Positions 355 to 61,243 of a stretch of 64,000 nucleotides of DNA are shown here, in pieces. Position 1 is the stretch's first letter; each line of letters begins with the position of its first letter. The translations under genes and the position numbers were made by a program. The DNA comes from Eledone cirrhosa (Eukaryota). Under the pieces are notes generated by a model. The model did not search any database. It had not been told where the DNA came from and saw nothing but the letters and a program-made list of their open reading frames with translations. The stretch is taken from contig OZ024743.1 in NCBI GenBank assembly GCA_964016885.1, forward strand, positions 213,404,001 through 213,468,000, written 5' to 3'.

Positions 355-1443
355 TCCCCACCACCACCCTACTCTCAAGAGCGTGAAATTAATAAACATT
401 CGTTGTACTGCCTCTCTGTTTTGTTCCTGTTCAAATTTTCCATTATATATATATATATACACATATAGCAGTGGCGGTGGAAGCATTTCTGAATGGCGGA
501 GGGCCAAATTTGGACAATTTAGTTGTATTGATTAGTTTAGCTCTTTGTCCTCTAAAATGGTCAGAAAGTTTCGATATGCGATAAACATAACATGTACATA
601 AATTATAGCGCATATGCAAATAAATGTGTGTTTTAGTAGTTTAAGGAGAAAATATAATTATTGCAGGGGGCATGCCCCTCCCCTCCAGGACCAGTACCTC
701 TGTATAACTATAATCAAAAAGAAAAATATGCTCATTGCCCTATCCGAAGGTGTTAATACATCGAACTTCGCATTTGGTAAGAAACTGGTATTACACCTAA
801 TATATTCATCTCAAATATATATATATATAGTAATAATAATAAATTTGAAGACTAAATCCAAAGAGGGCTCGAAAAGGATAAATATATATCAAATATATAA
901 GAACCCTCGACAAATATTTATTAAATAACAGCGATTCTTTGGTTAGAGTTTAATCTGTTATTTTAATAAATATATATATACATATACATACATAGATATA
1001 TACATTGATTTATTATGGGTATTGGTGAGCTTTATTACTCTACTTCGGTATTGCGTTTTCATTCTTACGTCCGTCAATAATTTACATATTCTCAGGTCAT
1101 GAAAAATAATCCCCATCCCCCGCTTATCAATTTCTCTGATTCCTCACCCCGGTTTTTATTCCATGTCTGTATATCTACAACCACCAAATTCCTACACCTC
1201 TCTGAAACGACTACACGGTATTCTGTTCTATATCAATTACCACTTGATATAGACGTGAATTACTTCGCTCCGGATTTTTACGGATTATTGTCAAAAAAAC
1301 TGTGAGTTCTTTGCTCAATTTAATAGCATTGTTTAGTTTAACGCCTTGCCTGGGCTGTCAGACGTTGAGTCAACTAATTTTCGCCCCTTTCTGGGGCGAA
1401 ATTTTCATTTTCATCTCAAAACTGTGTAGACTTGGTATCAGCA

Positions 1444-3239: not shown

Positions 3240-3281
3240 ATAATTTCCTTTCCTCTTCCTTTTTAACTCTTCAGCATCAAC

Positions 3282-6200
3282 ATGGCCAATATAAGAGTTG
3301 GATGTGTGAATGCACGCGGCCTGAGGATGTCCTGGAAACAGGGCAAACTCTTAAATGACCTCATGTCGCACAGAGTGGATGTAATGGTTATTTGCGAGTC
3401 CAGGATCAGCAGCGAGCGCCAACTGGCCCCCATCTTCGACGACTTTGAGATCTACGCATCTCTCTGTCAGCCGAGGGGTGGGGGTGGGGTTGTCGTTCTG
3501 CTGCGAAAATACCTGGGTCTTGCCACACAGAAGGTACACCTGGACCCGGAGGGTCGACTGGTGGTTTTAGACGTCGGCAGTGGTGAAGGTGGAACTTTCA
3601 GGCTGGTGGCAGCGTATGCCCCATCTGGGACACCGCGACCGGACTTCTTCCGACGCCTGGAGAATTTCCTGGGAACGTCTCACTCCTTGCTTTTAGTGGG
3701 GGACTGGAATGGTATCCTGGATGCACGTTGGGACTATGTAGGGGCGTGTCCCGATAGAGGGGTGTAACAGCCTCAAACGATTAATCGGCCGATTTGATCT
3801 GGCCGATAGATATCGACTAGATTTTCCGACTGTGCCACGGTGGACGTGGAGTAATCGCAGCGGAACATCTAGGTCGTACCTAGATAGGTTCCTAGTTAGA
3901 AATAAGGATAGGGACATATTAAGCTGTCCACGAATGTTCATGGTTGACTATTCGGATCACAAGTTGGTGACCGGAGTGGTCAACCTTGATAGAACTCATA
4001 GACAGGGACCCGGTTACTGGAAGCTAAACTTGTCTTTACCGACAAACAAAGCTTACAGTAAGCGGATTAGCACACCAGTTAAGCAGCGTTTGACGGGGGC
4101 AATTGTCAACAGCAGGTGGTGGGGCTCTCTCAAGAGAGAAATTAGAATAGAATCGATAGGTTTTAGTCGGGAATTAGCATCAGATAGGAATAGAACTGAA
4201 AGGGAATTAACAGATAGAGTAGAAGAGGCGATAAGGAGTGGCAACGTGGCCGGCGTGCTGGCGTCAAGAACGGCCCTAGACCAGTTCTTTGATGCGAAGC
4301 ACGAGGGCTGCGTTGTCAGGAGTAAAATACTTGCTCTGGGTAACGAGGGAGCCAAAGCTGTTAGCTGGGCCCGAGTGACAGAGGCAAAAAGTGGAAACAA
4401 GTCCACGATTCGGTCTTTGAAGGACCAGGATGGACGCGTGATCCTTGAACCTGAGCGGATGAGCGCGGCCTTTCAACGGCGCTTTGCACGACTGTTCGGG
4501 AGGAGCGGCGGGCCGGGTGGGGCCATGGATTTCGGTCCATAACTCGACGGTCTAGCGCGGCTCTCAGACGGGGAGGTGAAGTCCTGCGAGAGGCCGATTT
4601 CAGCCGCTGAAATAGGGGAAACGCTGAGCCAATGCGGCAAACGCAAATCTCCGGGTCTCGATGCTCTACCATACGAACTTTATGTAGCGATGCCGGGCTT
4701 ATTCTCCGGTCTCCTCGAGGCGGTCTACTGCAACTGGCAACAGAACGGGAGAATTACCAGTTCTGTGACCAAGGGCGTTGTCACGCTGGTGAGGAAGGAC
4801 GAGAACAAGGGTGATGACATAGATACCTTCAGGCCCATAACTCTGCTAAACACAGAGTTAAAGATTTTGGCCAAGGTGTTAGCGAAGAGGTTGGCGCTTG
4901 TCGTCGGGAACCTGGTGGGAGAAGCGCAGACATGCGCAATCCCGTCCAGGTCCATACACGACAACTTCCACCTCATGCGATACATCGTAGAGAGGGTAGG
5001 GAACGAACCCGGCTTTGGTGGGGCCCTGATCAACTTGGATCATTCTAAGGCGTTCGATAGGGTTGACCATCGGTACCTGGATGCGGTGCTCGCGGCGGCA
5101 GGCTTCGGCCCATTTTCAGGGGCTGGATTGCTGCAATGCACAGCAGCAACACCTGCTCGAGGGCCAAGGAGCCGTTCCAAATCACGCGATCCATCCGACA
5201 GGGATGCCCTCTCTCCTCCCTCCTGTATGTGCTGGCTCTCGAGCCACTACTGCGGAAGCCGGAGCTGTTGCAGGGCATCCCCTTGGAACCGGGATTGCAG
5301 AATGCGGTGTCGGCCTACGCCGATGACGTGACAGTAATGGTGTCGTGCGCCTCGGAAATCGGGCAGATCGGCACCTTACTGGAGGAATATGAAAGGTTCA
5401 CAGGAGCCAAGCTGAACCGGAACAAGTCCGTCGGTTTCCAACTCGGGACGTGGAGGGGCAAAATGATGCCCTCCGATTGCATCGTCGGACGCTTGACGGA
5501 GGAACCGGTGAAGCTGCTCGGAGTCTGGTTCGGACCGGATCTCCAGGTGGAGAAAAACTGGGACGAGCTAACGGGAAAGGTGTTTGCACTCGCCCAGAAG
5601 TTGGCCGAGTGCAAACTATCCCTGAAAGGTCGAGCGGAGGTGGCGAACGCTTATATAGTGTCCGTCATCTACTACCGCTTGACGGTCGTGCCTTGCCCAG
5701 AGAAAACACTCGCCAAAATGGAGCGCACGCTCTTCCGATTTCTTTGGAAGAAGCAGGCTCCTTTGGTGAGAAGATCCATCTGCTGTCAACACCCTTCTAA
5801 CGGAGGGCTGGGGTGCCGTGGCTGACGATGCGTAGACACGCATTAAGGCTACGGCACCTCCAGGTATTCCTCACCGGTCAGCCGGTGTAGGCCCTGTTTG
5901 TGAGCCGAGCCATTCCGAGACTCGTCTCACTCACCGAGCTGCAATCCTGGGTCAAGCAAAGACCTAGAAAAGTGGGCGACTGGCACATTGAATGTGCCCG
6001 GGCGCTCACAGCCCTCTGGCAAGCGGATCCGGCAATCAGTGGAGACTCAACATCAACATTCTATAGAGGGTTGGTGCGCAGTAAGTGCGACGACGCTCTC
6101 GTAGAGGCTCTGGGCATGGAGGAAGACGAGCTGGCCAGTCTGTTCGGTAGGACGTTTGGCCCGGGGCCGATGGACAACTTCCCAAAGTCCCTGGTTTGGC

Positions 6201-6662
6201 AATGTTACCGAGGAGCTCTACCCGTTCGGGACAAGCTCTACAGACACGGGCGCCCGGGTAGGGACCCCTCGAAGAAGATCTGTCCGAGATGCGTGCGTGA
6301 CGAGGAAACCGTCGCACACGCATTCGTACACTGTCCGGGCGTTGCGGGTGGGACCAATCCGGTTGACCACCGAGAACATTGTCACGATCAAACCGCCTCC
6401 CCCTTTCAAAAACGAAGGAGAGGCGGTTTTCCTCTGTGTGATAGCCATGGCGAAAGAAGTTGTATGGTGGACAAGGTTGAAAGGGTTGAGGTCAGACACC
6501 TTTCTCTCCGGCTAACAACTGGTCTTTTTTTTCAAGTACCACTTTAGAAGAAGGATCAGAATGGAGAGAGAGGTGCTCTATCCCAGCAAGTTTTATGAAA
6601 GATGGGTGAAAGTAGCGAGAATGGCCCGAGTGAATGGGCCTTCTCTCTATATCAGCCTGTAG
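3282..6662 (+). pseudogene. Tx1-like ORF2: AP endonuclease plus reverse transcriptase, several frameshifts and stops
   Basis: Motifs NARGL, LVGDWN, YLDRFL, SDHKLV, GPGYWKLN, KSPGLD, FRPITLLN, KAFDRVDH, RQGCPLS, YADDV and CPRC..ETVAHAFVHC spread over ORFs 3282-6547. Confidence 0.92.
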
Positions 6663-11624: not shown

Positions 11625-11966
11625 GAGAGAGAGAGAGAGAAAGAGAGACATATAGAGTGACTGTGACAGATATATATATATATATGTTGTTTTCATACGC
11701 GTTTTGCTGCTACCACTGTTGTTATGACTACCTCATACTACTCTCTCTCTATATTTCTGGTATATGAAATACCAGACGACCATACATCGTTCTTTCATAA
11801 CGTTTATAATATTCCGTCTTTCATATATTTCAAAGATTTATTTTCTCCGTGTCAGCTATATATATATATATATATATTTATATTTTTTTTGTTTTAACAT
11901 ATATTTATTTCTAAGATTTCACCGTAGAGATAACATATATTTATACATACATTACAGAAAGTGAAC

Positions 11967-14900
11967 ATGGGACGCAGAAAACATTTCTCATCTAAATCCC
12001 GACGCATGGCAGCAGACGCACAACGACAAAGAGAGATGAGAGCAAATCAATCAAACAATAATCGCTCTACAGCATCCCAGCAAATTTCTACAAATGTAAT
12101 TCAGTTAACACACCAACAACAACTTGCAACAAATACACCAAACGTTCAGAGAGGAAGGAACAGGTCAATTGAAGGTCTGGCAAAGAATCCTACAGATGAA
12201 CCTTCCAAAGAGCAAACTGTTCTTTCCATAATGCCACAACATAATGCAGGGAGTCTCTTTGCCTCTGTTTGTCCGCACTGCAAAGCTTATCGCTGGCCAC
12301 ATGAAACCAAATCTCTGTGCTGCTTCCAGGAAAAAGTGAAACTCCCCCAACTTCCTCCTCATCCACCTAATATACTGAAATATTTCAATATCACTCAAGC
12401 AGGAAATTCTTTTTTCCATAAGATACGTGCATATAACAATGTGCTTGCATTAGCTTCAATTGGTTGCAAAGAGATTTAGTCCCACATTTAAGATCCAAGG
12501 TAAGATTTGTCATATTATTGGATCACTACTTCCAAGTGATGCTTCACCCAAGTTTGCGCAGCTTTACTTCTATGATACAGATCATGAGCTTCAGAATCGC
12601 TTGCATCATGCTAATTTAGACGCTGCTGTCCAGCAGGACCTACAAGAAGACTTGCACTACTGCAACACCTATATAAAAAGCTTCAAGGCAGACATTGAAA
12701 TGACAGTCTCTGAAAATGTGAATATTGTCCTACATGCTGACAAAGTAAAACCCACTGATTTTCGTTGTCGCACATATAATCTTCCCATGGCTGTTATTCA
12801 ACCTGATACAGCATTAGGTCTTTTGGATGTCATCACTCATAAAAGAGATGGTGGTCTTCAGAGGTTTCATCAGTTGCACCGTTCTTATGATCCTCTGCAT
12901 TATGTGCTACTGTTTCCTTGGGGAAATGATGGGTTTCAGGTTGGTTTGAAAATGATTGACAACAACCACACACACCCATTGATTTATACTGTTATCGGTT
13001 TCAGGTTAGGGAAGGTGACTGTAACATTATCATGAAGAGTAGGCGGCTGATGCAGCAATATGCTGTAGATGAACATTGTCGCCGCAAATGGGCTCGCAAC
13101 AATCAAACCATGATACGAGCTGAAAAGTATGAGGGTTTGTATGATGCTGTGGCTGAAGGAGATTCAGTAAAGGCAGGCTAGAGAATTGTTCTTCCTCGCT
13201 TCTACAGTGAGTGCTTTCAGAGTTGTGGTTTCAAAGTTGTGGCTCATTCTGCTACAATAGAGTGGCAGAAACGAGGCCTCACTCATGCTCATATTCTTCT
13301 GATAATGGCTGAAGATAGCAAGCCCAAAGCTGCTGATGCCATTGATCAAGTAGTGTACTGTGAGATTCCTGAAAAAGAGACCAATCCAAATTCTGCATAA
13401 GATCAGCATATCCTGCAACATTCATGGCCCATGTGGACAAGCTAATATGATGTGCTCATGTATGGAAGGGCTAGGACAACAATGACATTGCTCAAAAGGT
13501 TATCCCAAGGCATTCAGACAAACCACATTTGTTGCCGAAAATTCCTTTCCGGAGTATAGAAGAAGGGATAGACAGCATGGTGGTCACATCCATACAATCC
13601 AACTTAAAGGTCAAGAATTTACTGTTGATAATCGTTGGATTGTTCCATACAACCCTTTCCTCTTAATGAGATACCAGTACCACATCAATTGTGAAGTTGT
13701 CCACAGTATCAAGGCTGTTAAGTACTTATATAATTACATCACAAAAGGATCAGACAAGATCACTTTCACTATTAAGGATGATCAAGGAAATTGTCTCCAT
13801 GCCCAAAATGAGATTGAGACCTATATCAATGCACAGTACATCTCAGCCAGTGAAGCATTCTGGAGAATCTATACATTTCCAATTGAAAAGTTTACCCGGG
13901 AAACAAATGGTCATGTATGAGCAAGGGCAGGAAGAAAGTGTTGTTTCTAGGGGACAGCCAATAACTAAGTTGACGGAATATTTTCAACTGAATATTAGCG
14001 ACCCACTGGCACAAAACATTATATATTGATATTGCTAAATATTTCATCAATACTTGGACAAACAAAAAGTGGCAAAGAAGAAAAAAGGAACATCTGGATG
14101 GTGATCAACAATTTATGAGACACATTCCAACAGTATCTCTCAGTAAACATCAATCTGAATCATATTATCTCAGGATGATTCTACATCACAAGGCTGGGTC
14201 AATTTCATGCAAAGATTTGTGGACAATTGAAGGAGTTGAATCTCCAACATTCCAAGAAGCATGCAGGAAACTTGGTCGGTTGGATGAAGATGGAGAAAAA
14301 GACAAAGCTATGGAAGAGGCCTCATCCACGCTTGGTCCTCAGCTGCTAAAGATCTTCTGCACCATTTTATTGTACTGCATGTCAAATGACCCTCTGCAGT
14401 TCTGGGAGAAATGGAAGAATTGTCTTGCAGAGGATATCATGCATGAACGTCATGAACAAGTCATATCCATGCAAACCGTGCAGATTGTTCTACAGAAGAT
14501 CCAACAAAGACTTCAACATGATGGCTTGGACATTCATGCCAACTATTGACTTCCTCGGTCAGACCCAACTATTGTTGCCATACCAGAAATCAACAGGGTT
14601 CTTATGGCAGAAACTGATTTCAATACACACCAACTGCAAGCAAACATAAATGAACTTCTGCCAACATTGAATCCTGAGCAACTGGTTATTTTTCACAAAG
14701 TAATCACCTCTGTAAATGAAAATGAAGGCAGAATTTTCTGCTTGAATGCAAGTGCAGGTACAGGAAAGACCTATGTCATAAACATCTTACTGGATTACCT
14801 CCGATCTAAAAAAGGAATTGCACTTGCCACTGCTATATCTGGAATAGCAGCCACTTAGCTTCACAAAGGTAGAACTCTACATTCCAAGTGCAAGATACCT

Positions 14901-26805: not shown

Positions 26806-27020
26806 ATATCTATCTATCTATCTATCTCTCTCTCTATATATATATCTCTGTGTGTGTGTGCGTGTGTGTGTGCGTGTGTGTGTGTGTGTGCGTGTGTGTG
26901 TTTATATGTGTAAAATCCCGACCGCGGAACCAAGCGGCTTCGGCTTGCATTGAGTACTCTCATGATTAGTGGTCTTCTCGGTCTCAGCTCCAAAGACTCT
27001 CTCTCTCTCTCTTTATATAT

Positions 27021-27185
27021 ATTATAAAATAACAGGAGGCTGGACTGGTGTAAATCCTTGAAAGGTTTATTATACTATGATCATTTCAATGACCGGATTC
27101 ATACTGAACCCGGTCATTGAAATGATCATAGTATAAGAAACCTTTTAAGGATTTACACCAGTCCAGCCTCCTGTTATTTTATAAT
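27021..27185. repeat. Long hairpin, 76 bp arms with 2 mismatches
   Basis: 27021-27096 is the reverse complement of 27110-27185. Confidence 0.95.
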
Positions 27186-27331
27186 AATTAACTCCGTACT
27201 CGCACCACCAACTACACAAACGAAGACGGGTGAGTTGCATTACGTTTATATTACATCGAGATTGACCATACGGAATGACCAGTTCTATCCAGTGGTGAAC
27301 CAACAAACCTAAATAAATAAATATATATATG

Positions 27332-28716: not shown

Positions 28717-29990
28717 AATAATGGAGCTGCGGCGTTGCAAATGGGATACATATGAAAAAGTGAGTCCTTCGTCAGTGACCCTCCAACCGTCCTCGGCATT
28801 TCATCGCTTTAAGGGCCATATGCCTCAGGTTGGTGCGAACAACGGCTAAAAAAAGTCGTTGGGACACGTAAATAAAGGGGGACGCTAGAGTAACAACAAA
28901 AAGGTTTAAGCAACGGAAAGTGAGTAGAAATAGACAAGTCCCAGATCTCTATGAATATAAACTCTGTGAAATCGTGAACAAGAGACGAAAGACCATCAGA
29001 CCTGGTAGAAATGTGAGCAAGGAAAGAATTTCGCCCAAGTTTTACGGGGGGGAAAAAAGAGAGAGAGAGAGAAAGAAAAAGGAGAGAAGAGGAAGAAGAA
29101 GAAGAAGATAAGGGGGTCAGGTCTGTTTGTTGTTACTCTAGCGTCCCCCTTTATTTACGTGTCCCAACGACTTTTTTTAGCCGTTGTTCGCACCAACCTG
29201 AGGCATATGGCCCTTAAAGCGATGAAATGCCGAGGACAGTTGGAGGGTCACTGATGAAGGACTCACTTTTTCATATGTATCCCATTTGCAACGCCGCAGC
29301 TCCATTATTATCATCATATTTACACATAATTTTTCCATGCTGCCTTCGTCTGTTTCGTTCCTTGTATCTTTACCACTTCTAGCAGTCTCCCTCTCTGTTA
29401 CCCTCTCCTCAACTTTCACTCACTCATTCTCTGTCACTACCTCTCCTCCTCCTCTTTCCTCCTCCTCCTTCAAGTTTGACCTGTGTGTAATTCTTTTCTC
29501 GTGCAGTCTTGACCGAGCTGGTATGAAATTTTTTTCTCTCTCTCTTTCGTCTGCGACTTCACAAAACTTGCGTTTACCGAATTCGTAGACCAGACCCCCT
29601 TATCTTCTTCTTCTTCTTCTTCTTCTTCTTCTTCTTCTTCTTCTTCCTCTTCTCTCCTTTTTCTTTCTCTCTCTCTCTCTTCCCCCCCCCCCCCCGTCAA
29701 ACTTGGGCGAAATTCTTTCCTTGCTCACATTTCTACCAGGTCTGATGGTCTTTCGTCTCTTGTTCACGATTTCACAGAGTTTATATTCATAGAGATCTGG
29801 GACTTGTCTATTTCTACTCACTTTCCGTTGCTTAAACCTTTTTGTTGTTACTCTAGCGTCCCCTTTATTTACGTGTCCCAACGACTTTTTTTAGCCGTTG
29901 TTCGCACCAACCTGAGGCATATGGCCCTTAAAGCGATGAAATGCCGAGTACGGTTGGAGGGTCACTGATGAAGGACTCACTTTTTCATAT
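28711..29990. mobile_element. Non-coding retrozyme/pLTR-like element: inverted partial copy plus 714 bp unit with terminal direct repeats
   Basis: 29126-29276 repeated at 29841-29990; 28711-29124 is an inverted copy; (TA)n at both outer ends. Confidence 0.8.
29161..29262 (+). ncRNA. Candidate rearranged hammerhead ribozyme (other copies 29875-29976 plus, 28764-28865 minus)
   Basis: ggcAT-A|tggccct..GAAAtgcc..agggtca-CTGATGA; stem III ggcat/atgcc, stem I tggccct/agggtca. Confidence 0.6.
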
Positions 29991-43559: not shown

Positions 43560-43903
43560 GGGTTTAGGATGGTGGTTAGGACGGAACAGGAGGGGAAAGG
43601 AAGAAAGGCGTTTCCATCGTCAGCTGTAAATGTTTCCCGAACCGATGTTTCGGCGCTGAATTACAGGACATCGGTGTAGTTCGGGTGCGCCCAAGGCCTT
43701 TTATTAATCAAAAGGCCAGGTGGAAAAGGAGAGAGAAAGAGAGAAAAAAAGGGAGAGAAAAAACGAGAGAGAAAAGCAAAGAGAGGGAAAGGAGGAAGAA
43801 CAGGTGGCAAAAAGATGAGGAGAGAGGAAGAAGGGGAAAAATAGGAAAGGAATGGGAGAAAAAAGTGTACAGGTCCACTCGTGAGCTCTCTTTCTCTCTC
43901 CTT
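43560..43903 (-). mobile_element. (TA)n-flanked non-coding element carrying a rearranged hammerhead
   Basis: Bounded by TA runs; pyrimidine tract then structured module on the minus strand, same layout as the 29 kb element. Confidence 0.6.
43611..43726 (-). ncRNA. Candidate rearranged hammerhead ribozyme, second family
   Basis: Minus strand accgatGTC|ctgtaa-ttca-gcgcc-GAAAcatcggt..ttacag-CTGACGA; 8 bp stem III, 6 bp stem I. Confidence 0.65.
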
Positions 43904-43959
43904 TATATATATATCACATAAGAAAGGGAGAATCAGTGTTGCGACGTCTAACATTTATT

Positions 43960-44056
43960 AGACATATTACAATAGTTTCTCTGGCGACCAGCTCGAGGCA
44001 CGATCGATGTAATGATCGAACCTGACTCTGAAATCGCAAGGTCGTCAGATACGTCT
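43960..44056 (-). ncRNA. Type I hammerhead motif with 62 nt extended stem II
   Basis: agacgtat-CTGACGA-[62 nt hairpin]-GAAAC-tatt-GTA-atatgtct, then AATAAA; 8 bp stem I. Confidence 0.6.
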
Positions 44057-44236
44057 CGATTCTAGGAAGCAGAATTTCCAAATGTCCAGTTACACCCGAG
44101 GCCCTCACTCGGTGGCTTAGATCCTGTTGTTGTCATTCTATGATATATATATATATAGACAACAACAGGATCTAAGCCGCCGAGTGAGGGCCTCGGGTGT
44201 AACTGGACATTTGGAAATTCTGCTTCCTAGAATCGA
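44056..44236. repeat. 79 bp inverted repeat with (TA)n in the loop
   Basis: 44056-44134 versus 44158-44236, one mismatch. Confidence 0.95.
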
Positions 44237-44239
44237 CAG

Positions 44240-44307
<68 letters not shown>

Positions 44308-45990: not shown

Positions 45991-46920
45991 TCTACTATAT
46001 AAATTGGAAGTGGTCGGACTTTGTATAGTTAAGTAAGTAAGTAAGTGTAGTCGGATAAACATCGAAAAGGCTTGGTGGAATGCAGCGAAAATTTACACAG
46101 TTATGCAGAATGACCCGAGGAGGTGTTGGGTCGACTTTTAGGGTACAAGCTTCCATGGTTACGGAGAAAATCGATGAAACGGGAATTTCCTATTCAAATT
46201 GAACTGAGAGTAATCTGTGAACGCAGAAGTAAATATTTCGAGAAACATTCCAGCCGAACGAAAACAGGAAGACGATATTTTGGTTCGTGAAGACGTTTCC
46301 TGGCAATGAACGGGAAAAAAGCGAGGATAATACGTCGTTATGTGAAGCGAGAAGAACAATTTCATGCAAAGACAAGACCAAGTTTATGGTGTAAATGGAG
46401 TCGTTAGACTAATGTTCTATTTAAAATAACAGAATGATTTCCAGCCCCGGAGTTTAAGAATGGTGTAAATAAAATTGAAAACGAAAATGACAGAGGTTAT
46501 TAAAATAGTAAAAGTAAATAGTGAAGATTTAGGCCAGTACATACGTATGCCCCGACGGACATACACATACATACGCACACACAAATACATACCCCCCCCC
46601 CCACACACACGCGCGCCCGCGTGTATAAACCTTATGCATTTCTACAGTATTTTCACCAAACTTAAGACATAGGTTACTTATGTACTCCGGATGGTCATGG
46701 GCACTTTCATTTTTCCAGATATTGATTATAGGGCCTCCCGGCAGATAACCTCCTTTAACCACTTCCTTGGAGTCGACTGAAGAACAGCAATGCAATGCAA
46801 CAAAACGTCATAACTTCTGGAGTTCGCAACCGATTTTCACAAAACTTGACACATGGGCTACGATTGTCCTACATATGAATGTTAACTCTCAGAATTGGCA
46901 CATATTGGGAAAAGCCGATG
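45991..46920 (+). mobile_element. Probable non-autonomous Helitron-type element (3' end not seen)
   Basis: A|TCTACTATATAAA start, short (TAAG)n, repeated ccgattttcac.aaactt motifs typical of such elements. Confidence 0.45.
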
Positions 46921-47088
46921 ATTTTGAAACCGATGTTGTTATGCTTTGGGAGGGTCATGTTGCCAATAAGAAACACACGCACCAGTTGCTTTCACTTCAA
47001 TTTATTATAAATTAAATTCATAAATTTAAGAGTTTATAAATTTCCGGTTGGTTGGTTGGTTCCACAACCGGACGGTTGTTCATATATT

Positions 47089-47131
47089 GTCAAAGTTCTT
47101 TCGTCACACATTCTGTGACCTCTTCAGTGAC
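47089..47131 (-). ncRNA. Minimal hammerhead in the PLE pLTR
   Basis: gtca-CTGAAGA-g-gtcaca-gaatg-tgtgac-GAAA-gaac-tt-tgac; the copy in the other arm (about 48448-48490) has GAAA changed to AAAA. Confidence 0.65.
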
Positions 47132-47378
47132 TGGGTATTCTTCTCTTTGTTTTGTGCCTCTCCTACGCCATCTAGTTTTTGTGTGTGTTGTGTGCTTAGT
47201 TTGCGCATGTGTTACATCCGGGTGTCTGTGTGTGTTTTTATTTGTTTATTTATTTGTTTATTTACATGTTACTGGTTGGTTGTTTGTTCTATGTGTGTGT
47301 GTGTTTTTATTTTGTAAGTTGTGATGTTACTATTCCATTCATGTTTTCTATTTAATTTTGGTTCGAGTTGATTTATGT

Positions 47379-48201
47379 TTATTGCTTCTGTGATTTGTCT
47401 AAACATTGCGCTTTTCTGTGTGTAGATTTTATTTTTATTTCTATGTTCTCTAATTTGCCCTTATGTTCTAATTTAGCATGTTGGTGGAGTACGGATGAAT
47501 CTGTTCTATCTTGAAGCTCTCGCCAGTGTTCATTTAATCGTTCTCCTATACTACGAGCTGTCTCACCTATGTACACTATATTCTTATCTTTACATTGTCC
47601 TCCAGTACATCTTATGCTCTATACTATGTTTCTAGTTTTACAGTTAATATGGGGGCTTAGTTTACAGATTATACATTTCTTATCTATACAGGGAGGTCTT
47701 TGAAAGGGTATGTATTACTAATAAGTGTTTTTTCTGGAGGTACCTGGTCTTTCTACTATCTTAATATTTAGTTTAAGTTTATCTAGGGCCCTTCTAAATA
47801 TGTAAGCTAATTCACCTCTAGGTGTTGTATTGATGAATATTACACTCTGGTATTTATTGCTATCATACCATGAGTTTATTCTATTAACCTTATTCCTAGT
47901 TTTTTCTATTCTATTCCAAAATGTTCTCCTATACAAGGGGCAGGTCCCATTTGTATCATTATTTACCATTTTTTTCCATTTGGTTCTGGCTCCTCTATAT
48001 ACTCTGATTTTATCTCTCTGATTGTAACCAGAGAACTGCATACGGGGGATGAAGTGTTGTATGTGTCTCTCTAGTTCTTTGGGGTTGCACATGCGTTTCT
48101 CATCACCCGTACTAAATCCGCAATCAGTATGTTGATTTTGGTGTGATCCGAAACAGCTGAGTTTCGGTGGATCAGATATTTGGAAGTCATGGGTTTGGCA
48201 T
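47379..48201 (-). pseudogene. PLE RT C-terminus, Cys-rich linker and GIY-YIG endonuclease
   Basis: YAKPM..LIHRNSA..KINILIADLVRVMRN, FSGY, CIDKKCIIC..CKTRNIV*SIRC..C..VYIGETARSIGERLNEH; Cys linker suggests the Neptune group. Confidence 0.85.
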
Positions 48202-48694
48202 AATTAAATAGAAAACATGAATGGAATAGCAACATCACAACTTACAATTAAGGACAAAATGAAAACACACACACATAGAACAAACAACCAACCAGTAACA
48301 TGTAAATAAACATATAAATAAACAAATAAAAACACACACAGACACCCGGATGTAACACATGCGCAAATTAAGCACACATCACACACAAAAACAAGATGGC
48401 GTAGGACAGAACAAAGGAGAGGCACAAACCAAAGACAAGAATCCCCAGTCACTGAAGAGGTCACAGAATGTGTGACAAAAGAACTTTGAAAATACATGAA
48501 CAACCGCCCGGTTGCGGAACCAACCAACCGGAAATTTATAAATTCTTAAATTTATGAATTTAATTTATAATAAATTGGAGTGAAAGCATGTGGTGCGTGT
48601 GTTTCTTATTGGCAACATGACCCTCCCAAAGTATAACAGTATCGGTTTCAACACACGTTTTCAGATAAAGAATCTTGCTAAACAAGTTCAGAAA

Positions 48695-50979: not shown

Positions 50980-52439
50980 TCTTCTGGTTTTATAATTTCG
51001 CAAATGTTTTCCCAATAAAGAGAGAGTCGGATTCTAACATAGACACAAGACTCTCTCATTGGAATTTACACATCAACTAGGTAGATTATGTATGCATGCA
51101 TGTGTAGATAGGGATGTTATTGTATGTGTGGATGTGTATATGCTTTGCATCTGTACATGTGTATATGCAGTTATTAGATGCAAAATGTTTGGAATATTTT
51201 ACATATTTTTACTGGATTGTACTTGTAATTTCCTAACTAGTTGTGTTCTTTCTGCTGTGAAGCCCAGCTTCTCAAGATTTGTATTGAGGCAGTTACTAAC
51301 ATATCCCAGTGCCCCAATAATCACAGGCATAAATCTGAATGTATAATCAGGGTGGAGTATCTGCAGATTTTTCATCAGTTCTGCATAAATATTCTCATTT
51401 TCGCTAATCTTTGATATTATATTGGCATCCGCTAGGCAGCTAATTTCCACTACTGTGCATGTTTTCTTCACCCTGTCCCATATCATAATATCTGGTCTGT
51501 TTTGCCTGCATTTTATTGGCGGTTTTACTGGAACATTCCACCAATACTCTTTCATATTATGTACATGGATGTGTTCTACATTGCTGTAGCTTTTAATGTG
51601 TTTATTATGCAGTTGTTCATCCATGGATTCACCTGCGATACTGCTGAGCGACTTCCCTGGGTGTGAGTTTTTGATTATCACACAGGGAATATCTCTCGAG
51701 GAGTTCCTTCCCAACTCTCATGATCTTATCTGTTTCCTGCAGATAGACTTGCTTGAGAAACGGGCTCCTACGTTTCGAGGTTCGTAGATGTTGTCGGAGA
51801 GATATGATGCGACATTCAAATGCTGTCTGGACTGATGTTAGGCCTCTGCCTCCCTGCTTACGTTTCAAGTAAAGGCGGTATATGTCACTGTTGATGTGGA
51901 AGTTTCCGGTGTTGTTTAGTATTTTTCGAGTTCCAACATCAACTGCTCGGATTTCGTCCAATTGAGTATTCCAAACGTTGGTGTTAGGACAGGCACAGCA
52001 AACACGTTGTGAGCCACTGTTTTGTTTTGCGCAGAGAGTTCCGATGACCAGATCTTTCTTAATCAGGTGTAGTATTCCCTGGTTACGCGTTCTTTATTAC
52101 AGATACCATTATAGGATATGTACTCATCTATCCCCAGGTATCTGTAGCAGTCCTCATCAGATATCGGTGAAACAGTTAGGCCATTGATGACAATGTTGCT
52201 AGATTAGGTTGTTGTTTTTCCCCGCTTTACAGTCATGTATGAGCATTTATCTTGGCCAAACTCCATTCCTATATCCTTTGAGAACGTTGTAACCAGGTCA
52301 AGATTTTTCTTCATCCTATCCATGTTCTTGGCAGAGTTTCAGATCGTCCACAAAGAAATTATGGGTTAGGTTCGTATTTCTGTCCTCCTGTGAGCCAATG
52401 ATGTATCCCTCACATTTCTTGAGCAGAAAGGACAAGGGG
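50980..52439 (-). mobile_element. R4/Dong-clade LINE, family B, truncated and internally deleted
   Basis: HNFFVDDLKL, RLYLKRKQGGRGL, NRPDIMIWD..VVEISC, PVIIGALG; (CATA)n at both ends. Confidence 0.85.
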
Positions 52440-52503
52440 TATGTATGTATGTATGTATGTATGTATGTATGTATGTATGTATGTATGTATGTATGTATGT
52501 ATG

Positions 52504-55500
52504 TTATCTCTTTCTCTTAATTTCGAGTATACTTTTTTTGACCGGCCACCTTCCTGGTGGCAAGGTTGTAAATGAAAAGAAATTGTCATCACTTGAATCG
52601 TAAGAATGTATTGCAAATTTTGAAGGTGCCGGCTATCGCAGCCATTTCTAGACTATGAATTAGGGAGCTGCGCTCTTTGTCCGCAAATCCAAGTTCAGTC
52701 ATACTTTGGTCCAAGCGGGTTGGTATATAACCCGTAGCTCCAATAATGATGGGTATGAAGCTAAAGGTCTATCTTGGATACTGGATTTGTAAACTCCTAA
52801 TCAATGGTCCGTAGATGTCCTCCTTCTCCTGTATTTTTCTGACAACGTTTACATCAAGTGGGCAGCTGATCTCCACAACAGAACACGTTTTCAATGTGTG
52901 GTCCCAAACAACAATATCAGGCCTGTTGTGCTTTAATTTGGTGGCAGTTTTTATTTTCAGGTTCCACCAGTATTCCTTAGTGCCATCTGTCGCAATATAT
53001 TCTTCCTCATTTGTTGTTAATTTTGTTTACCGAAGTGCGTTCCAGATGGTTCTAGCTATCCCATCGTGTCTCATGGGGAGTTGTAGCGAGATGACATTCT
53101 TTCGAAGCTGGCAACAATGTGGCTTACATCCTCTATCTTTGTTTTACATAGCCTACATTTATTGTCAGCTGATGGCCCTCCGCTTTTGTGCAGCAGATAT
53201 TTGGTAGGGAGTTCTTGTTCCTGTATTGCATAGAGATATCCCTCAAGGTGTGATGTCATAAACTTGTCGGAACTCCATGCCAGGCTTTTTGAGTGGTTTA
53301 TCCCCTCTATGGTCTGTGTTTTACGTCTCAAGTATCCATGCACAACTTTTTCTGTAAATTGGTCAATTTTTTCATCTTGTTTGGACATTGAATAGGATCT
53401 TCCGATTTCTCTGGGTGAGAGATTTATATCAGGCTTTATTCCATATCTCTCCTCCAGATCAGTCACTATTCTAATGATATATTTTTTTTCATGCTCATAA
53501 ACCTGTGCAAGATGGTTGCCAACCTTTTTCCTCTGTTGCAGGTGTTGCTTCAGTGTTACTATCCGGGTTCATATGATGTTAATATGGATTTTAGACCCCG
53601 GCCACCTTACTTGCGTGAGAAGTATAGCCTATCCACATCATCATTGATGTTAAAGTTCCCAGCAACACTGAGAAGTTTGCGAGTTCTAATATCCATCTCA
53701 CTTAGTTCTTGCAATGACCAGTTCAGCAGGCCAAATGTTGGCGTTAGAATTGGCACAGCATAAGTATTGTGGGCAATGTATTTGTTGTACGCTGACAGTT
53801 CTGATGACCATATTTTCTTTACTCTTCTGAGGTATTCAGTTCTGGTTCTCTCCTTATTTATGGGTCCATCATATCTGACATTCTCATCCTGTCCAAGATA
53901 TCTGTAGTTGTCACCTGACTGTATAGGTTGTATTGTCAGGCCGTTCATCTCTAGATTTCTAGAGGAGGGCACAGCTCTTCCACGTTTTACTGCCAAATAT
54001 GCACAGTTGGACTCACCAAATTTAATTTTGATGTCTGTTGAAAATTGTGTAATGAGGTCCAATTGTTTCTTGATGTCATTGATATTTGGCCCATACAACT
54101 TCAGGTCATCAACAAAGAAATGATGGGAGATACTTCTGGACCCACCTCTTTGTCCACCTTGTTTCCTGAGTAGGTAAGATAGTGGATTTAGTGAGAGAAC
54201 GAAGAGTAGCACTGACAAGCTATCACCCTGAAAGATGCCCTTCTGGTAATGTATCTTATCAGTATTAACTTGCTCCTTCTCACCTCTAAGGATCAAATTG
54301 GTGTACCAGTTCTTGGTCAGACGTTCAACAGCAGCTACCAGTGGTTGTGAGACTTTGGCTAACTGTAAAGCCTTAACAATCCACCCATGAGGTACACTAT
54401 CAAATGCTTTTTGATAGTCCAGCCACACCACAGTCATGTTTCTGCGATTCTTTGTTGTTTTTTTCTTGAATCATTTTATTAGTTAGTAGGTGATCTATGC
54501 AACCCCACACCTCCCTCTTTCCACCAGCTTGCTCAGGTGTTATGATGTTGTTGGTAGCACAGTGATCCTGTAAGAACAGGTTAAGGCACCCAGTATATAA
54601 TTTATACATGATGTTTTGGCAGGCTATTGGGCGGTCATTTTTAGCAAGGGTGGTTTGGCTATTTGGGGGAATGAGGAGAGTAGTGGCAGTTGATAACCAT
54701 CTGGGCAGTACTTGTGTGCTTTTAATGGTTTCTGTAAATAGCCGTATGAGATCTTGCCCATAGAAAGTGAAATTCTTCAACCAGTATCCTGTAATGAGGT
54801 CTGGGCCTGGTGATTTCCTATTCGACATTTTCTGTAGAGCTGTTTCCAGTATTGACCCATCTATGTCATATTGTTTTGTCTGGACATGTTGGCAGTAGTC
54901 CTGTTCCAGTTGTTTTAGCCAACTAGTTTGTCTGTTGAATCCGTCATCCGTTTCCCATACAGATCTCCAGTAGCTCTCAACCTGTTCTTTTGAAGGGGTG
55001 TCATTTACAGGGATTGAGCTTTTGCCACCGAAGCTCCGATAAACTGATTTAGGATCTCTGGCAAACAATCTATTTAGTACGTGTCGTTTATGTGCTGTTG
55101 ACTTATATTTTAGTATTTCTGTTGTAGCTGTGAGTTGTTGTTTCAACTGGTGTAATTTGGAGTGCAAAGTTTTAAATTTTGTATCTCCAAATCGTCTCTC
55201 TAACTTTTTTTAGGTCTTCCTGGTGTCATATGAAGTTGCTCTCTATGTTGCATTTCATAACGACTGCGATGTGTGAGATACTTCGTCTCAGGGACAAAAT
55301 TTTGCCTTTTAAATTTCGCATCCACGCTGGTTCAGGCTTTTTGTTTGTATCTTGATTGCGTGGTTTTAGATGTGTGTTATATGATAGCAATGTGACAGCT
55401 GAAACATATAACAAAATATTAAGTGTTTTAAATGTCGTTTCTACACCTTTAGATCGTATAGCCTTCAGATAATTGCCAGCTATTTCGTTCACCGCTTCCA

Positions 55501-56762
55501 ATTCCAATTTAGTGGGTTCTTTACTGATTCTGGTGTTGTATAGTCTGTCACTCACATAAAGGCTGTGTATCTCTTGAAACATATCGTCCCATATCACTTG
55601 TAAGGTGACCACAAGTTTTTGGTTTTCTGTTTGTACAGTAGAGTCATGAATTTCAGCCTCGTTGTTGATGTGGTGACAATTGCTGCTAGAGTTAGCTGAC
55701 CATTCTCGCTGTTCTTCAGTGGAAGTGGGATGGATTTCAGCAAAATTGTTGGTGAGCTGGTCACTGTTAGATTTAGCTGGCCATTCTCTTTGTCTGTCAG
55801 TGGAGGTGCGGTGGTTGTCTACAAGGGCTGTATTTGTAGTATCACTCAATTCCGTTAGATGTATCAATTTACATCTAATGATACGTTTTGCCTGTTCATT
55901 TAAATGCTTTGAAGAAAAGTCTAATTCTGGGTGTTTGGAGTTCCATAAAGTTTTTAGCCTTTGCATAAAACTGAACTTTTGGGGTTCAGATTGTTTGTAT
56001 GCTTCATATAATTCTTTGTTAAGCTCGTAGTTCCACTGAATACAACGGTTGTAGTTGCGATTTGGTCGAAGGAGACTTGTACGTTTTGCTATGATGAGTT
56101 CGTCTATTCACTAATATTTTGTATTTTTTTTCAAAATAGTCGATGATCTTCTTTAAAAGTTTCGACAAAGTTCTGTCAGAATCAAATTTAAAGTTATTCA
56201 CAGCTTGGGTAATATTTCTTTTCAGTTAGTTTTTAATTCTACAACTGTGTTTTAAATTGTTCTTGAATCGTTTGAATCGAGAACCCCCCCCCCAAAAAAA
56301 AACCCCCGTTACTTAGTACATTTCTTTATGAATGTAATATAATATAACAACGCTGTATTTATATGTTAAAGTTTATGTATCATTCATATAAATAGGTGTT
56401 CTACAACTTATTCACAACATATTCACAGTTCAAACACTTACGTTTTTGTTTCTGAATCGAAAACGTTACTTGCATATTTCTTTATAAATGTAATATAACA
56501 ACGTTGCATTTATATGTTAAAGTGTATGTATCGTTCATATATCATAAGTGTATGTATCATTCATATATCATAAGTGTATGTATTGTTCATATAAATAGGT
56601 GTTTTACAACACACTTACAGTTCAAATACTTATGTAGAATTATTGTATGTAATCTTACCGCGTAATGTAGCTCAACTTTTTCCAATATATAGTATGTTGC
56701 CTTCATGTAAGCCGTAATTACACACGTCCGTTTATCGGACACTGACCACAACGGTCGCCATT
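52504..56762 (-). mobile_element. R4/Dong-clade LINE, family A, apparently full length with 5' UTR, frameshifted
   Basis: N-terminal Myb-like W..ELN..LY..Y..MQRLKTLW, KSPGPD, WLDYQKAFDSVPH, FQGDSLS, FFVDDL, CRLC..H and REL domain; (CATA)n on both sides. Confidence 0.92.
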
Positions 56763-56803
56763 GTATGTATGTATGTATGTATGTATGTATGTATGTATGT
56801 ATG

Positions 56804-57203
56804 ACCCCTTAGCCTTTGTCAAGGCAGAATTCTAGGAGAAGGAAAACTGATATAACACCTGCAACCCTGATGGTATCCAATGATGTTGACTTGTTCTTCT
56901 TTTTGGTAAATATCATCTTGGTTAAGAGAGTGGGACTGGCTTTGTGCAGTGCCTTTGCTCACTATAAAAGCTTCACAGCACAGGCATTGCTTTATATCTG
57001 GAGATCTCTCTGCACTTGGTACAATCACAGGGTACAATGGGCCCAGCACTATGTGTCAGTAATTGTCACAAGTGTAGTGTTTGTACCAGAGTTTTCAAGT
57101 CGCTGGCTGGACTAAAAAGTCACACTCGTTCAGCTCATCGGTAAGGGTTCTCCTACATGGATATAAAGTAGTGGCCGTACTCGAAAACGAGTTGGCAGCC
57201 ACC
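56804..57203 (+). mobile_element. Short non-coding element with 3' hairpin and (TATG)n tail (longest copy)
   Basis: 56938-57203 matches 60646-60911 and 60978-61243; 5' extension has RTE-like ctaggagaaggaaaactga. Confidence 0.75.
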
Positions 57204-57226
57204 ATGTATGTATGTATGTATGTATG

Positions 57227-60200
57227 TTTTCTCTTTCTCTTAATTTCGAGTATATTTTTTTGACCGGCCACCTTCCTGGTGGCAAGGTTGTAAAAGAAAA
57301 GAAATTGTCATCCCTTGAATCGCAAGAATGTTTTGCATATTTTGAAGGTGCCAGCTATCGCAGCCATTTGTAGACTATGAATTAGGGAGCTGCGCTTTTT
57401 GTCCGCAAATCCAAGTTCGGTCATACTTTGGTCCAAGCGGGTTGGTATATAACCCGTAGCACCAATAATGATGGGTATGAAGCTAAAGGTGTATCTTGGA
57501 TACTGGATTTGTAAGCTCCTCATCAATGGTCCGTAGATGTCCTCCTTCTCCTGTATTTTTCTGACAACGTTTACATCAAGTGGGCAGCTGATCTCCACAA
57601 CAGAACACGTTTTCAATGTGTGGTCCCAAACTACAATATCAGGCCGGTTGTGCTTTAATTTGGTGGCAGTTTTTATTTTCAGGTTCCACCAGTATTCCTT
57701 AGTGCCATCTGTCTCAATATATTCTTCCTCGTTTGTTGTTAATTTTGTTTTCCGAAGTGCGTTCCAGATAGTTCTAGCTATCCCATCGTGTCTCATGGGG
57801 AGGTAGTAGCGAGATGACATTCTTTCGCAGCTGGCAACAATGTGGCTTACATCCTCGATCTTTGTTTTACATAGCCTACATTTATTGTCAGCTGCTGGCC
57901 CTCCTCTTTTGTGCAGCAGATATTTGGTAGGGAGTTCTTGTTCCTGTATTGCATAGAGATATCCCTCAAGGTGTGATGTCATAAACTTGTCGGAACTCCA
58001 TGCCAGGCTTTTTGAGTGGTTTATCCCCTCTATGGTCTGTGTTTTACGCCTCAAGTATCCATGCACAACTTTCTCTGTAAATTGGTCAATTTTTTTTTCT
58101 TGTTTGAACATTGAATAGGATCTTCCGATTTCTCTGGGTGAGAGATTTATATCAGGCTTTATTCCATATCTCTCCTCCAGATCAGTCGCTATTCTAATGA
58201 TATTTCTTTTTTCATGCTCATAAACCTGAGCAAGATGGTCGCCAACCTTTTTCCTCTGTTGAAGGTGTTGCTTCAGTGTTACTATCCGGGTCTCATATGT
58301 TGTTAATATTGATTTTAGACCCCGGCCACCTTCCTTGCGTGAGAAGTATAGCCTATCCACATCACCATTGATGTTAAAGTTCCCAGTAACACTGAGAAGT
58401 TTACGAGTTCTAACATCCATCTCACTTAGTTCTTGCAATGACCAGTTCAGTAGGCCAAATGTTGGCGTTATAATTGGCACAGCATAGGTATTGTGGGCAA
58501 TGTATTTGTTGTATGCTGCAGTTCTGATGACCATATTTTTTTTACTCTTCTGAGGTATTCAGTTCTGGTTCTCTCCTTATTTATGGGTCCATCATATCTG
58601 ACATTCTCATCCTGTCCAAGATATCTGTAGTTGTCACCTGACTGCAGAGGTTGTATTGTCAGGCCGTTCATATCTAGATTTCTAGAGGAGGGCACAGCTC
58701 TTCCACGTTTTACTGCCAAATATGCACACTTGGACTCACCAAATTTCATTTTGATGTCGGTTGAAAATTGTGTAATGAGGTCCAATTGTTTCTTGATGTC
58801 ATTGATATTTGGCCCATACAACTTCAGGTCATCAACAAAGAAAAGATGGGAGATACTTCTGGGCCCACTTCTTTGTCCACCTTGTTTCCTGAGTAGGTAA
58901 GATAGTGGATTCAGTGAGAGAACGAAGAGTAGTACTGACAAGCTATCACCCTGAAAGATGCCCTTCTGGTAATGTATCCTATCAGTCTTAACCTGCTCCT
59001 TCTCACCTCTAAGGATCAAATTGGTGTACCAGTTCTTGGTCAGGCGTTCAACAGCAGCTACTAATGGTTGTGGGACTTTAGCTAACTGTAAAGCCTTAAT
59101 AATCCACCCATGAGGTACACTATCAAATGCTTTTTGATAGTCCAGCCACACGACAGTCATGTTTCTGCGATTCTTTGTTGTTTTTTCCTGAATCATTTTG
59201 TTAGTTAGTAGGTGACTATGCAACCCCACACCTCCCTCTTTCCACCAGCTTGCTCAGGTGTTATTATGTTGTTGGTAGCACAGTGATCCTGTAAGAACAG
59301 GTTAAGGCACCCAGTATATAATTTATACATGATGTTTTGGCAGGCAATTGGGCGGTAAATTTTAGCAAGGGTGGTTTGGCTATTTTTGGGAATGAGGAGA
59401 GTAGTGGCAGTTGATAACCATCTGGGCAGTTCTTGTGTGCCCTTAATGGTTTCTGTAAACAGCCGTATGAGATCTTGCCGATAGAAAGTGAAATTCTTCA
59501 ACCAGTATCCTGTAATGAGGTCTGGGCCTGGCGATTTCCTATTCGACATTTTCTGTAGAGCTGTTTCCAGTATTGACCCATCTATGTCATATTGTTTTGT
59601 CTGGACATGTTGGCAGTAGTCCTGTTCCAGTTGTTTTAGCCAATTAGCTTGTCTGTTGAATCCGTCATCCGTTTCCCATACAGATCTCCAGTAGTTCTCA
59701 ACCTGTTCTTTTGAAGGGGTGTCGTTTACAGGGATTGAGCTTTTGCCACCGAAGCTGCGATAAACTGATTTAGGATCTCTGGCAAACAATCTATTTAGCA
59801 CTTGTCGTTTATGGGCTGTTGACTTATATTTTAGTCTTTCTGTTGTAGCTGTGAGTTGTTGTTTCAACTGGTGTAATTTGGAGTTCAAAGTTTTAAATTT
59901 GGTATCTCCAAATCGTCTCTCTAACTTTTTCTTTAGGTCTTCCTGGTGTCGTGTGAAGTTTCTCTCTATGTTGCATTTCATAACGACTGCGATGTGTGAG
60001 ATACTTCGTCTCAGGGACAAAATTTTGGTTTTTAAATTTCGCATCCACGCTGGTTCAGGCTTTCTGTTTGTATCTTGATTGCGTGGTTTTAGATGTGTGT
60101 TATATGATAGCAATGTGACAGCTGAAACATATAACAAAACATTGAGCGTTTCAAATGTCGTTTCTACACCTTTAGATCGTATAGCCTTCAGATAATTGCC

Positions 60201-60600
60201 AGCTATTTCGTTCACCGCTTCCAATTCCAATTTAGTGGGTTCTTTACTGACTCTAGTGTTGTATGGTCTGTCACTCACATTAAGGCTGTGTATCTCTTGA
60301 AACATATCGTTCCATATCACTTGTAGGGTGCCCACAAGTTTTTGGTGCTCTGTTTGTTCAGTAGAGTCATGAATTGCAGCCTCGTTGTTGATGTGGTGGC
60401 AATTACTACTAGAGTCAGCTGACCTTTCTCGCTGTTCTTCAGTGGAAGTGGGATGGATTTCAGCAAAATTGTTGGTGAGCTGTTCACTGTTAGATTTAGC
60501 CGGCCATTCTCTTTGTCTGTCAGTGGAGGTGGGGTGGTTGTCTACAAGGGCTGTATTTGTAGTATCACTCGATTCCGTTAGATGTATCAATTTACATCTA
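57227..60600 (-). mobile_element. R4/Dong-clade LINE, family A, 5'-truncated, nearly intact ORF
   Basis: Three overlapping ORFs (59205-60590, 58468-59229, 57308-58534), i.e. two frameshifts; RT motifs, CRLCKTKIEDVSHIVASC, NRPDIVVWD..VEISCP. Confidence 0.95.
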
Positions 60601-60645
60601 TGTATGTATGTATGTATGTATGTATGTATGTATGTATGTATGTAT

Positions 60646-61243
60646 GGCTTTGTGCAGTGCCTTTGCTCACTATAAAAGCTTCACGGCACAGGCATTGCTT
60701 TATATCTGGAGATCTCTCTGCAGTTGTCGTCACATGGTACCATGGGCCCAGCACTATGTGTCAGCACTAATTGTCACAAGTGTAGTGTTTGTAACAGAGT
60801 TTTCAAGCCGCTGGCTGGACTAAAATATCACACTCGTTCAGCGCATCGGTAGGGGTTCTCCTACATGGATATAAAGTAGTGGCCGTACTCGAAAACGAGT
60901 TGGCAGCCACCATGTATGTATGTATGTATGTATGTATGTATGTATGTATGTATGTATGTATGTATGTATGTATGTATGGCTTTGTGCAGTGCCTTTGCTC
61001 ACTATAAAAGCTTCACGGCGCAGGCATTGCTTTATATCTGGAGATCTCTCTGCAGTTGTCGTCACATGGTACCATGGGCCCAGCACTATGTGTCAGCACT
61101 AATTGTCACAAGTGTAGTGTTTGTAGCAGAGTTTTCAAGTCGCTGGCTGGACTAAAATATCACACTCGTTCAGCGCATCGGTAGGGGTTCTCCTACATGG
61201 ATATAAAGTAGTGGCCGTACTCGAAAACGAGTTGGCAGCCACC
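60646..61243 (+). mobile_element. Two tandem 266 bp copies of the short element separated by (TATG)n
   Basis: Near-identical units with period 332 bp. Confidence 0.9.

Follow-up and report, generated by a model that had tools for sequence, protein, structure and literature searches.

The window, i.e. the whole stretch of 64,000 nt from Eledone cirrhosa contig OZ024743.1 that was analysed and whose first letter is position 1 below, carries on its minus strand, at 43611-43726, all segments of a hammerhead ribozyme core in the block order S-G-C. Its host is a non-coding repeat, called family A here, that is about 0.8 kb long and inserted at TA; the motif sits close to the 3′ end of this repeat. 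The copy in the window (43561-43904, minus strand) is 5′-truncated and set between (TA)n runs, shows 89% homology to a longer copy over 43883 to 43561, and has at its 5′ end a 19-nt inverted segment (43886-43904, minus strand) that is the reverse complement of 43725-43743. Full family-A units are spaced by 821 and 787 bp in the tandems of two loci, their longest ATG-initiated open reading frame (ORF) having 75 aa. A 37-base core of the family, with up to two mismatches allowed, occurs 442 times in the 3.0-Gb assembly, versus 0 for the control, and the 30 best copies share a common 3′ end with variable 5′ starts, mostly abutting TA runs.

Read 5′ to 3′ on the minus strand, the motif opens with the Q strand (43721-43726), followed by a hairpin (43692-43720; pair probability about 1.0) made of a C-G pair, a 2x2 loop, an 8-bp stem and a 7-nt loop. 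Next comes D (43687-43691), the displaced 5′ strand of stem II, which supplies the equivalent of G10.1 and is a 5-bp complement of 43652-43656 (duplex energy -8.4 kcal/mol). A single A (43686) links D to the P strand (43681-43685), which pairs with 43636-43640 in a helix tethering stems I and II, and a 5-nt spacer leads from P to stem III. Block S (43661-43675) comprises the stem III 5′ strand (43668-43675), the GUC cleavage triplet with C17 at 43667, and the stem I 3′ strand (43661-43666), from which a 4-nt linker runs to the stem II 3′ strand (43652-43656); the latter belongs to block G (43641-43656), together with GAAA (43648-43651) and the stem III 3′ strand (43641-43647). Beyond P′ (43636-43640) lies block C deprived of its stem II strand (43617-43629), with the stem I 5′ strand (43624-43629) and CUGACGA (43617-43623), and directly after A9 comes Q′ (43611-43616), which forms 6 bp with Q. 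The hallmarks of hammerheads (CUGANGA, GAAA and an NUH site with U16.1-A15.1) are all present, the core is flanked by stems I and III of 6 and 8 bp, and the predicted cut falls between 43667 and 43666, i.e. after GUC.

A sequence-only reading of the same DNA had listed these segments in this order on the minus strand, with the same cut position, the single A ahead of P and the 4-nt linker between stems I and II, all of which are found again here. Its list omitted the 7-nt hairpin loop and the 5-nt spacer between P and stem III. It also gave the hairpin as ggcctttt/aaaaggcc, with cct and ttg beside it; the hairpin runs on through the 2x2 internal loop to the C-G pair, so that Q, hairpin and D abut without linker. 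For this family it was correct in putting Q and the hairpin between A9 and stem II, Q coming directly after A9.

Several other features surround the motif. Directly upstream of the copy, at 43940-44240, lies another repeat folded back around a TA run and related to a type I hammerhead-bearing repeat elsewhere in the genome (locus L006). The region 46920-48655 is an inverted-repeat Penelope-like fragment with an ORF piece at 47718-48203 (minus strand), and its repeats hold, by eye, an ordinary type I hammerhead-like motif. A near-perfect inverted repeat of about 180 bp occupies 27013-27192. Translations inspected by eye reveal broken non-LTR retrotransposon ORFs and a Helitron-like fragment at 1378-6547, 11934-14549 and 51199-60680.

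A second family, B, is represented near 29 kb by a tandem module with motif copies at 29161-29262 and, 714 bp on, at 29875-29976 (both plus strand), and by an inverted 5′ copy at 28764-28865 (minus strand). Family B arrays have units of about 730 bp, and one of them (G000:C2:54547230-54566378) extends over about 19 kb at 99% identity. Within the class as a whole, repeat units measure about 0.5-0.85 kb with one motif per unit, and a loose superfamily pattern yields 15,812 matches, some loci being counted twice, versus 4 for the reversed pattern. The sequence-only reading had presented the two families as dissimilar in sequence with one architecture. BLAST indeed finds no match between them, but the letters of D-A-P and of stem II are shared and a dozen related subfamilies exist, so that the two families are likely homologous rather than independent. 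The junction is one step off in the 29-kb family.

Predicted fold and its conservation among copies

The ViennaRNA centroid fold recovers Q, the hairpin, P and stem III unguided, and D/II and stem I cross its helices, hence are pseudoknots. In a 320-nt context the Q helix is absent from the prediction, and the folding energy z-score of the motif is modest (-1.9). Of the 143 Rfam matches in the window at E up to 5, none belongs to a hammerhead family. A descriptor requiring CUGANGA, GAAA and a UH site flanked by stems I and III matched, in the window, the motif at 43611-43726, all three 29-kb motif copies and a single AT-rich sequence of different block order. In 80 evenly spaced 10-kb stretches of the genome, an S-G-C descriptor gave 6 matches versus 0, 1 and 0 in three shuffles. 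Ordinary type I hammerheads are dense in this genome, with 54 matches in 800 kb (loci L051-L130) versus 0-1 in shuffles.

A pattern search supplied 194 motif instances. Stems I and III are present in 141, of which 110 pass the full six-helix parse, it being understood that the parsed instances are related to one another and that their core letters are fixed by the search pattern. The same parse is obtained in 69 of 2820 controls with shuffled upstream sequence and in 0/65 phage matches (75 pattern loci in the phage collection, 65 with enough flank, none with stems I and III). Among the 30 closest family-A copies, chosen by similarity, 17 keep the core and all six helices.

In an alignment of 16 copies from B/C-type subfamilies, 94.9% of cells are paired, as compared with 27-47% when the structure is slid along the alignment. 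Two-sided changes affect 19 of the 33 pairs, a number reached by 0/500 shuffles. The changes include five of the six pairs of P, and stems I and III covary among subfamilies. The A clade is as well paired (94% of cells in 12 aligned copies), but two-sided change is seen in only 2/27 scored pairs, both in Q, whose first pair switches between A-U and U-A from one A subfamily to another; D/II shows no two-sided change there and P falls outside the scored pairs. Three rows of the A2 alignment are one column out of register at Q, which lowers the Q score. D/II is paired in 98% of cells in both the A and the B/C alignments. The earlier argument from whole-helix covariation is supported across subfamilies, but, drawn from two families, it overstated the independence of that covariation.

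The junction itself differs by one step between clades. In A types, the base that follows A9 is already the first of Q, and the partner of 11.1 comes from D. In B types, 11.1 tends instead to be paired with the base that follows A9 (14/16 in the covariation alignment), but when all B copies with A at 11.1 are considered, the matching U after A9 is present in only 13/27. Family C has G at 11.1, with no standard partner.

These features point to a double-pseudoknotted fold. P and stem III would form one long stem, the loop of which would hold the stem I 3′ strand, the 4-nt linker and the stem II 3′ strand. Into this loop upstream D would pair as stem II, and the strand before CUGACGA would pair there as stem I. 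A9 would run straight into Q, itself stacked on the hairpin, and the core, Q, hairpin and D/II would constitute a four-way junction bridging the missing A9-G10.1 link. D/II would then stack under the A9-G12 pair, as stem II does, and P would keep stems I and II side by side.

Relation to published hammerheads and to Naiad retroelements

Non-circularly permuted hammerheads of types SGC, CSG and GCS, with demonstrated cleavage, were described by Eckert et al. 2023 (PMC10085705). In vitro, cleavage is shown by SGC and CSG ribozymes whose I, II, III and P helices are equivalent, and for one SGC ribozyme stems I-III and the I-II helix were required. The present motif resembles type SGC in its block order, its short linker between the stem I 3′ and stem II 3′ strands (4 nt here), its full core, and a P helix that connects stems I and II on the sides away from the linker. 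It differs in that block C is split, with the stem II strand located upstream and with Q and the hairpin forming a four-way junction at A9; compared with the SGC order, the stem II strand, together with P, stands at the front instead. No stem II 5′ strand follows A9 directly, and pairing of stem II directly after CUGACGA is not possible in the 43611-43726 motif. According to Eckert et al., block C was assumed to be uninterruptible because known insertions there amount to at most 1-2 nt. Since block C is split, the motif is not to be filed as type SGC; topologically it is predicted to be of type CSG/SGC, opened inside block C between A9 and G10.1 and clamped by Q and the hairpin. The description ‘rearranged hammerhead’ given by the sequence-only reading is correct as to rearrangement and core insertion, but the S-G-C order itself was already published as a non-circular permutation (PMC10085705).

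As to origin, the supplement of PMC10085705 lists HRIMA-1/SGC from soil, spruce and sludge RNA and five CSG sequences from soil DNA; the supplement rows considered mention neither an animal genome nor a transposon. Perreault et al. 2011 (PMC3088659) described hammerheads with 1-bp and U-U-closed stems II and small insertions. These share with the present motif a base-paired I-II contact and tolerance of a weak or mismatched 10.1-11.1 pair, but their core insertions are of 1-2 nt, without helices, and their permutations are circular only. No hammerhead with a break or with helices between A9 and stem II was found in the literature searched, including the portions of reviews covered, and no permuted or split hammerhead in animal genomes or Naiads in that literature, which consisted mostly of open-access papers.

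The host repeats recall the non-LTR retrozymes of animals (Cervera and de la Pena 2020, PMC7229834; Li et al., bioRxiv 10.64898/2026.07.22.740005). In the parts of PMC7229834 considered, these are non-coding tandem units with one ribozyme motif each, ranging from monomers to long arrays, for which mobilisation by Penelope-like elements is proposed, as here. Their motifs, however, are type I hammerheads, and the order here is S-G-C, not C-G-S. As it is not type I, the present motif cannot be filed as a classic non-LTR retrozyme, and retrozyme surveys using type I descriptors therefore miss it.

Naiads, a group of Penelope-like retroelements, were described by Craig et al. 2021 (PMC8557442), who, in the sections considered here, report no canonical hammerhead in them and label some as ‘HHR_core’ or ‘HHR_half_core’ without structure. 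To these elements the repeats are linked by the (TA)n target, partial tandems and 5′ inversions, all three of which are seen here, 5′ inversions being a described feature of Penelope-like insertions in the same paper. Further likenesses, seen by eye, are the same RNA layout, shared short letters at the 3′ end, and the hairpin loop of the octopus Naiad, which matches B subfamilies. Unlike Naiads, the present repeats lack an ORF.

For 43 Naiad consensus sequences from the supplement of PMC8557442, the final 300-400 nt were parsed by eye. The split layout (Q, hairpin, D, P, III, I) appears in seven of the 43 ends, namely three Acropora elements, Naiad_Plae, the element listed before Naiad_Ppla, Naiad_Obim and Naiad_Ovul, and most of it appears in three others (Bfor, 3_Chem and 2_Movir). 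Five nematode Naiads (Naiad-1/-2/-3_Nbra, Naiad_Hcon and Naiad_Hpol) carry instead the unsplit type CSG, in complete motifs with a long P helix and the layout of the soil-DNA CSG ribozymes of PMC10085705. Neither the split layout nor CSG was seen in 28/43 ends over this length.

A short motif of the Acropora type retrieved at least 120 metagenome loci. Of these coral-type copies, 94 have enough flank; the full scripted parse succeeds in 11, with a zero-linker four-way junction and compensatory changes of their own, and many of the remainder are 5′-truncated. The zero-linker junction of Q, hairpin and D is made of unrelated letters in these 11 copies. ORFs of at least 150 aa lie upstream in five of 31 coral-type loci, none being retroelement-like by eye. 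The earlier proposal of a selected RNA structure common to a class of small mobile elements is thus supported by the high-copy tandem repeats, by covariation among subfamilies and by the recurrence of the layout with unrelated letters in coral-type copies and, by eye, in Naiad ends. The split-core motif is a real, selected variant of a known ribozyme class. Judged from these sequence likenesses, the host repeat likely derives from Naiad-type Penelope-like retroelements, and the split motif likely cuts the RNA of those Naiads that end in the same layout.

A first alternative is an ordinary type-SGC hammerhead with a stem II of 1-2 bp formed by the letters after CUGANGA, with D, Q and the hairpin serving as a scaffold or off-switch outside the active fold. 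The A types do allow such a stem, with an extra nucleotide and 2 bp (GG/CC). The B types, in which the letter after A9 covaries with 11.1, have four pair types among the 14/16 paired copies. The oligonucleotide table of PMC10085705, examined by eye, includes tested SGC ribozymes with an extra U after A9, and one natural hammerhead with a 1-bp stem II is active according to PMC3088659. However, direct stem II pairing between the letters after CUGANGA and the strand before GAAA amounts to at most 2 bp in 141/141 copies, and in coral-type copies with D found no such pair is possible in 35/36 (0 bp). By eye, none is seen in the Naiad ends of Acropora, of Pomphorhynchus and of one further element. 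In addition, the letter after A9 covaries with Q in A types, and D/II is almost completely paired in both alignments. This alternative is accordingly considered unlikely, and the split core with D as stem II strand is preferred.

Indirect signs of cutting

If copies are made from cut RNA, their 5′ ends should coincide with the cut or lie just past it. Of the 99 coral-type matches, 38 extend across the upstream half; the start lies between -3 and +10 of the predicted cut in 49 and between -40 and -4 in 9, and 3 have no upstream likeness. In other words, 49/58 truncated copies start near the predicted cut (p about 2e-19 versus uniform truncation). In the present genome, the longer arm of B-family fold-back junctions starts at -1 or 0, which are inseparable, in 14/31 cases, with four junctions at -3 and four at +1. 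This peak differs from uniform nulls (p 4e-7 to 4e-10); it coincides with an AT dinucleotide, and the next AT upstream has four junctions. The A-type 5′ ends abutting TA, inspected by eye at 34 loci among 100 listed of 232 matches, have no peak at the cut (6 at 0/+1, 15 at +3 to +6, 13 upstream), a distribution fitting microhomology. Smaller sets of 5′ ends give, for the cut window versus upstream, 4 vs 2 in A2 (p 0.03), 3 vs 2 in C and 1 vs 4 in random B. As far as 5′ ends can tell, the class thus shows signs of cutting at the predicted site, with no clear peak yet for the family of the 43611-43726 motif itself.

Such data bear on a second alternative, in which the fold is selected but cleaves inefficiently in cis and acts as a binding or priming signal for a retroelement protein, the core letters being kept by descent. 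The absence of a clear step at the cut in A-type and random B ends speaks for it, as does the extension of integrated copies about 50-150 nt past the predicted cut, from which it follows that many templates were uncut or religated. Against it stand the sharp 5′-end step of the coral-type copies, the fold-back peak, and position 17, which, read at fixed offset, is never G in 176/176 B/C copies. The same core also recurs across phyla, its conservation in the collected sets being due in part to the construction of the search patterns. On balance, this second alternative appears improbable.

Finally, chance complementarity within a repeat family, with apparent covariation due to shared descent, could appeal to the low z-score and to the relatedness of the copies, owing to which shuffle controls overstate significance, but it is largely refuted by the shuffle, reversed-pattern, upstream-shuffled and slid-structure controls and by the recurrence of the layout with unrelated letters in distant animals, and is very improbable.

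Proposed role and significance

Taken as a whole, the 43611-43726 motif is, with good confidence, an S-G-C hammerhead core near the 3′ end of a tandem-forming repeat that is likely Naiad-derived. It is predicted to form a double-pseudoknotted fold with a stem II strand supplied by upstream sequence, and to cleave the RNA that contains it after GUC at 43667. With equal assurance it can be proposed to work like both an SGC hammerhead and a retrozyme. Read-through transcripts of tandem copies would be cut once per unit, as for retrozymes (parts of PMC7229834 and of bioRxiv 10.64898/2026.07.22.740005). The unit RNAs, linear or religated into circles, would be reverse-transcribed in trans by a Penelope-like RT/endonuclease, and insertion at (TA)n would yield 5′-truncated, inverted and multi-unit copies. 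The templates would include religated circles or uncut multimers, since integrated copies continue beyond the cut and the arrays run to many units.

Candidates for the partner were sought in the genome. No intact Naiad was found with narrow motif patterns; these searches gave five decayed matches and one DKA-type match without ORF. Four decayed remnants resembling octopus Naiads lack the split motif within 8.5 kb; loci L312-L315 are decayed, frameshifted Naiad-type remnants recognised by short motifs. At the loci examined, motif copies were not seen linked to any ORF with an N-terminal GIY-YIG and RT. At locus L201, a GIY-YIG ORF lying upstream of a motif was considered as a partner and rejected, as it belongs to a nested element with a minimal type I hammerhead of its own at the end; five long-ORF copies of this family have the type I motif and no split motif downstream on their own strand. 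A high-copy Penelope-like family (loci L303-L307; 30,238 first-look candidates) combines ORFs of 746-987 aa with C-terminal GIY-YIG similarity and a minimal type I hammerhead, and an element of this type could act in trans on the repeats. One of its loci, L307, holds a 311-bp tandem retrozyme-like repeat.

At a broader scale, the motif probably represents a seventh natural arrangement of the hammerhead, in which the catalytic core would work although its backbone is broken between A9 and stem II, a four-way junction closing the gap. On this proposal, the split form and the unsplit CSG would be the missing ribozymes of many Naiads in cnidarians, an acanthocephalan, nematodes and cephalopods, parasitic copies would number tens of thousands per genome, and the soil-DNA CSG ribozymes may themselves be Naiad ends. 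If this is true, the stated rule that the CUGANGA block of hammerheads cannot be interrupted would fall, and an arrangement would be added beyond the six thought possible. The helix-tolerant site at A9 would offer a new attachment place for aptamers. Retrozyme surveys based on type I descriptors would be missing a large class. Non-circularly permuted ribozymes, reported from environmental sequences, would gain a place in the genomes of animals, in many copies, and it would be explained why Naiads seemed to be without the hammerhead carried by other Penelope-like elements.
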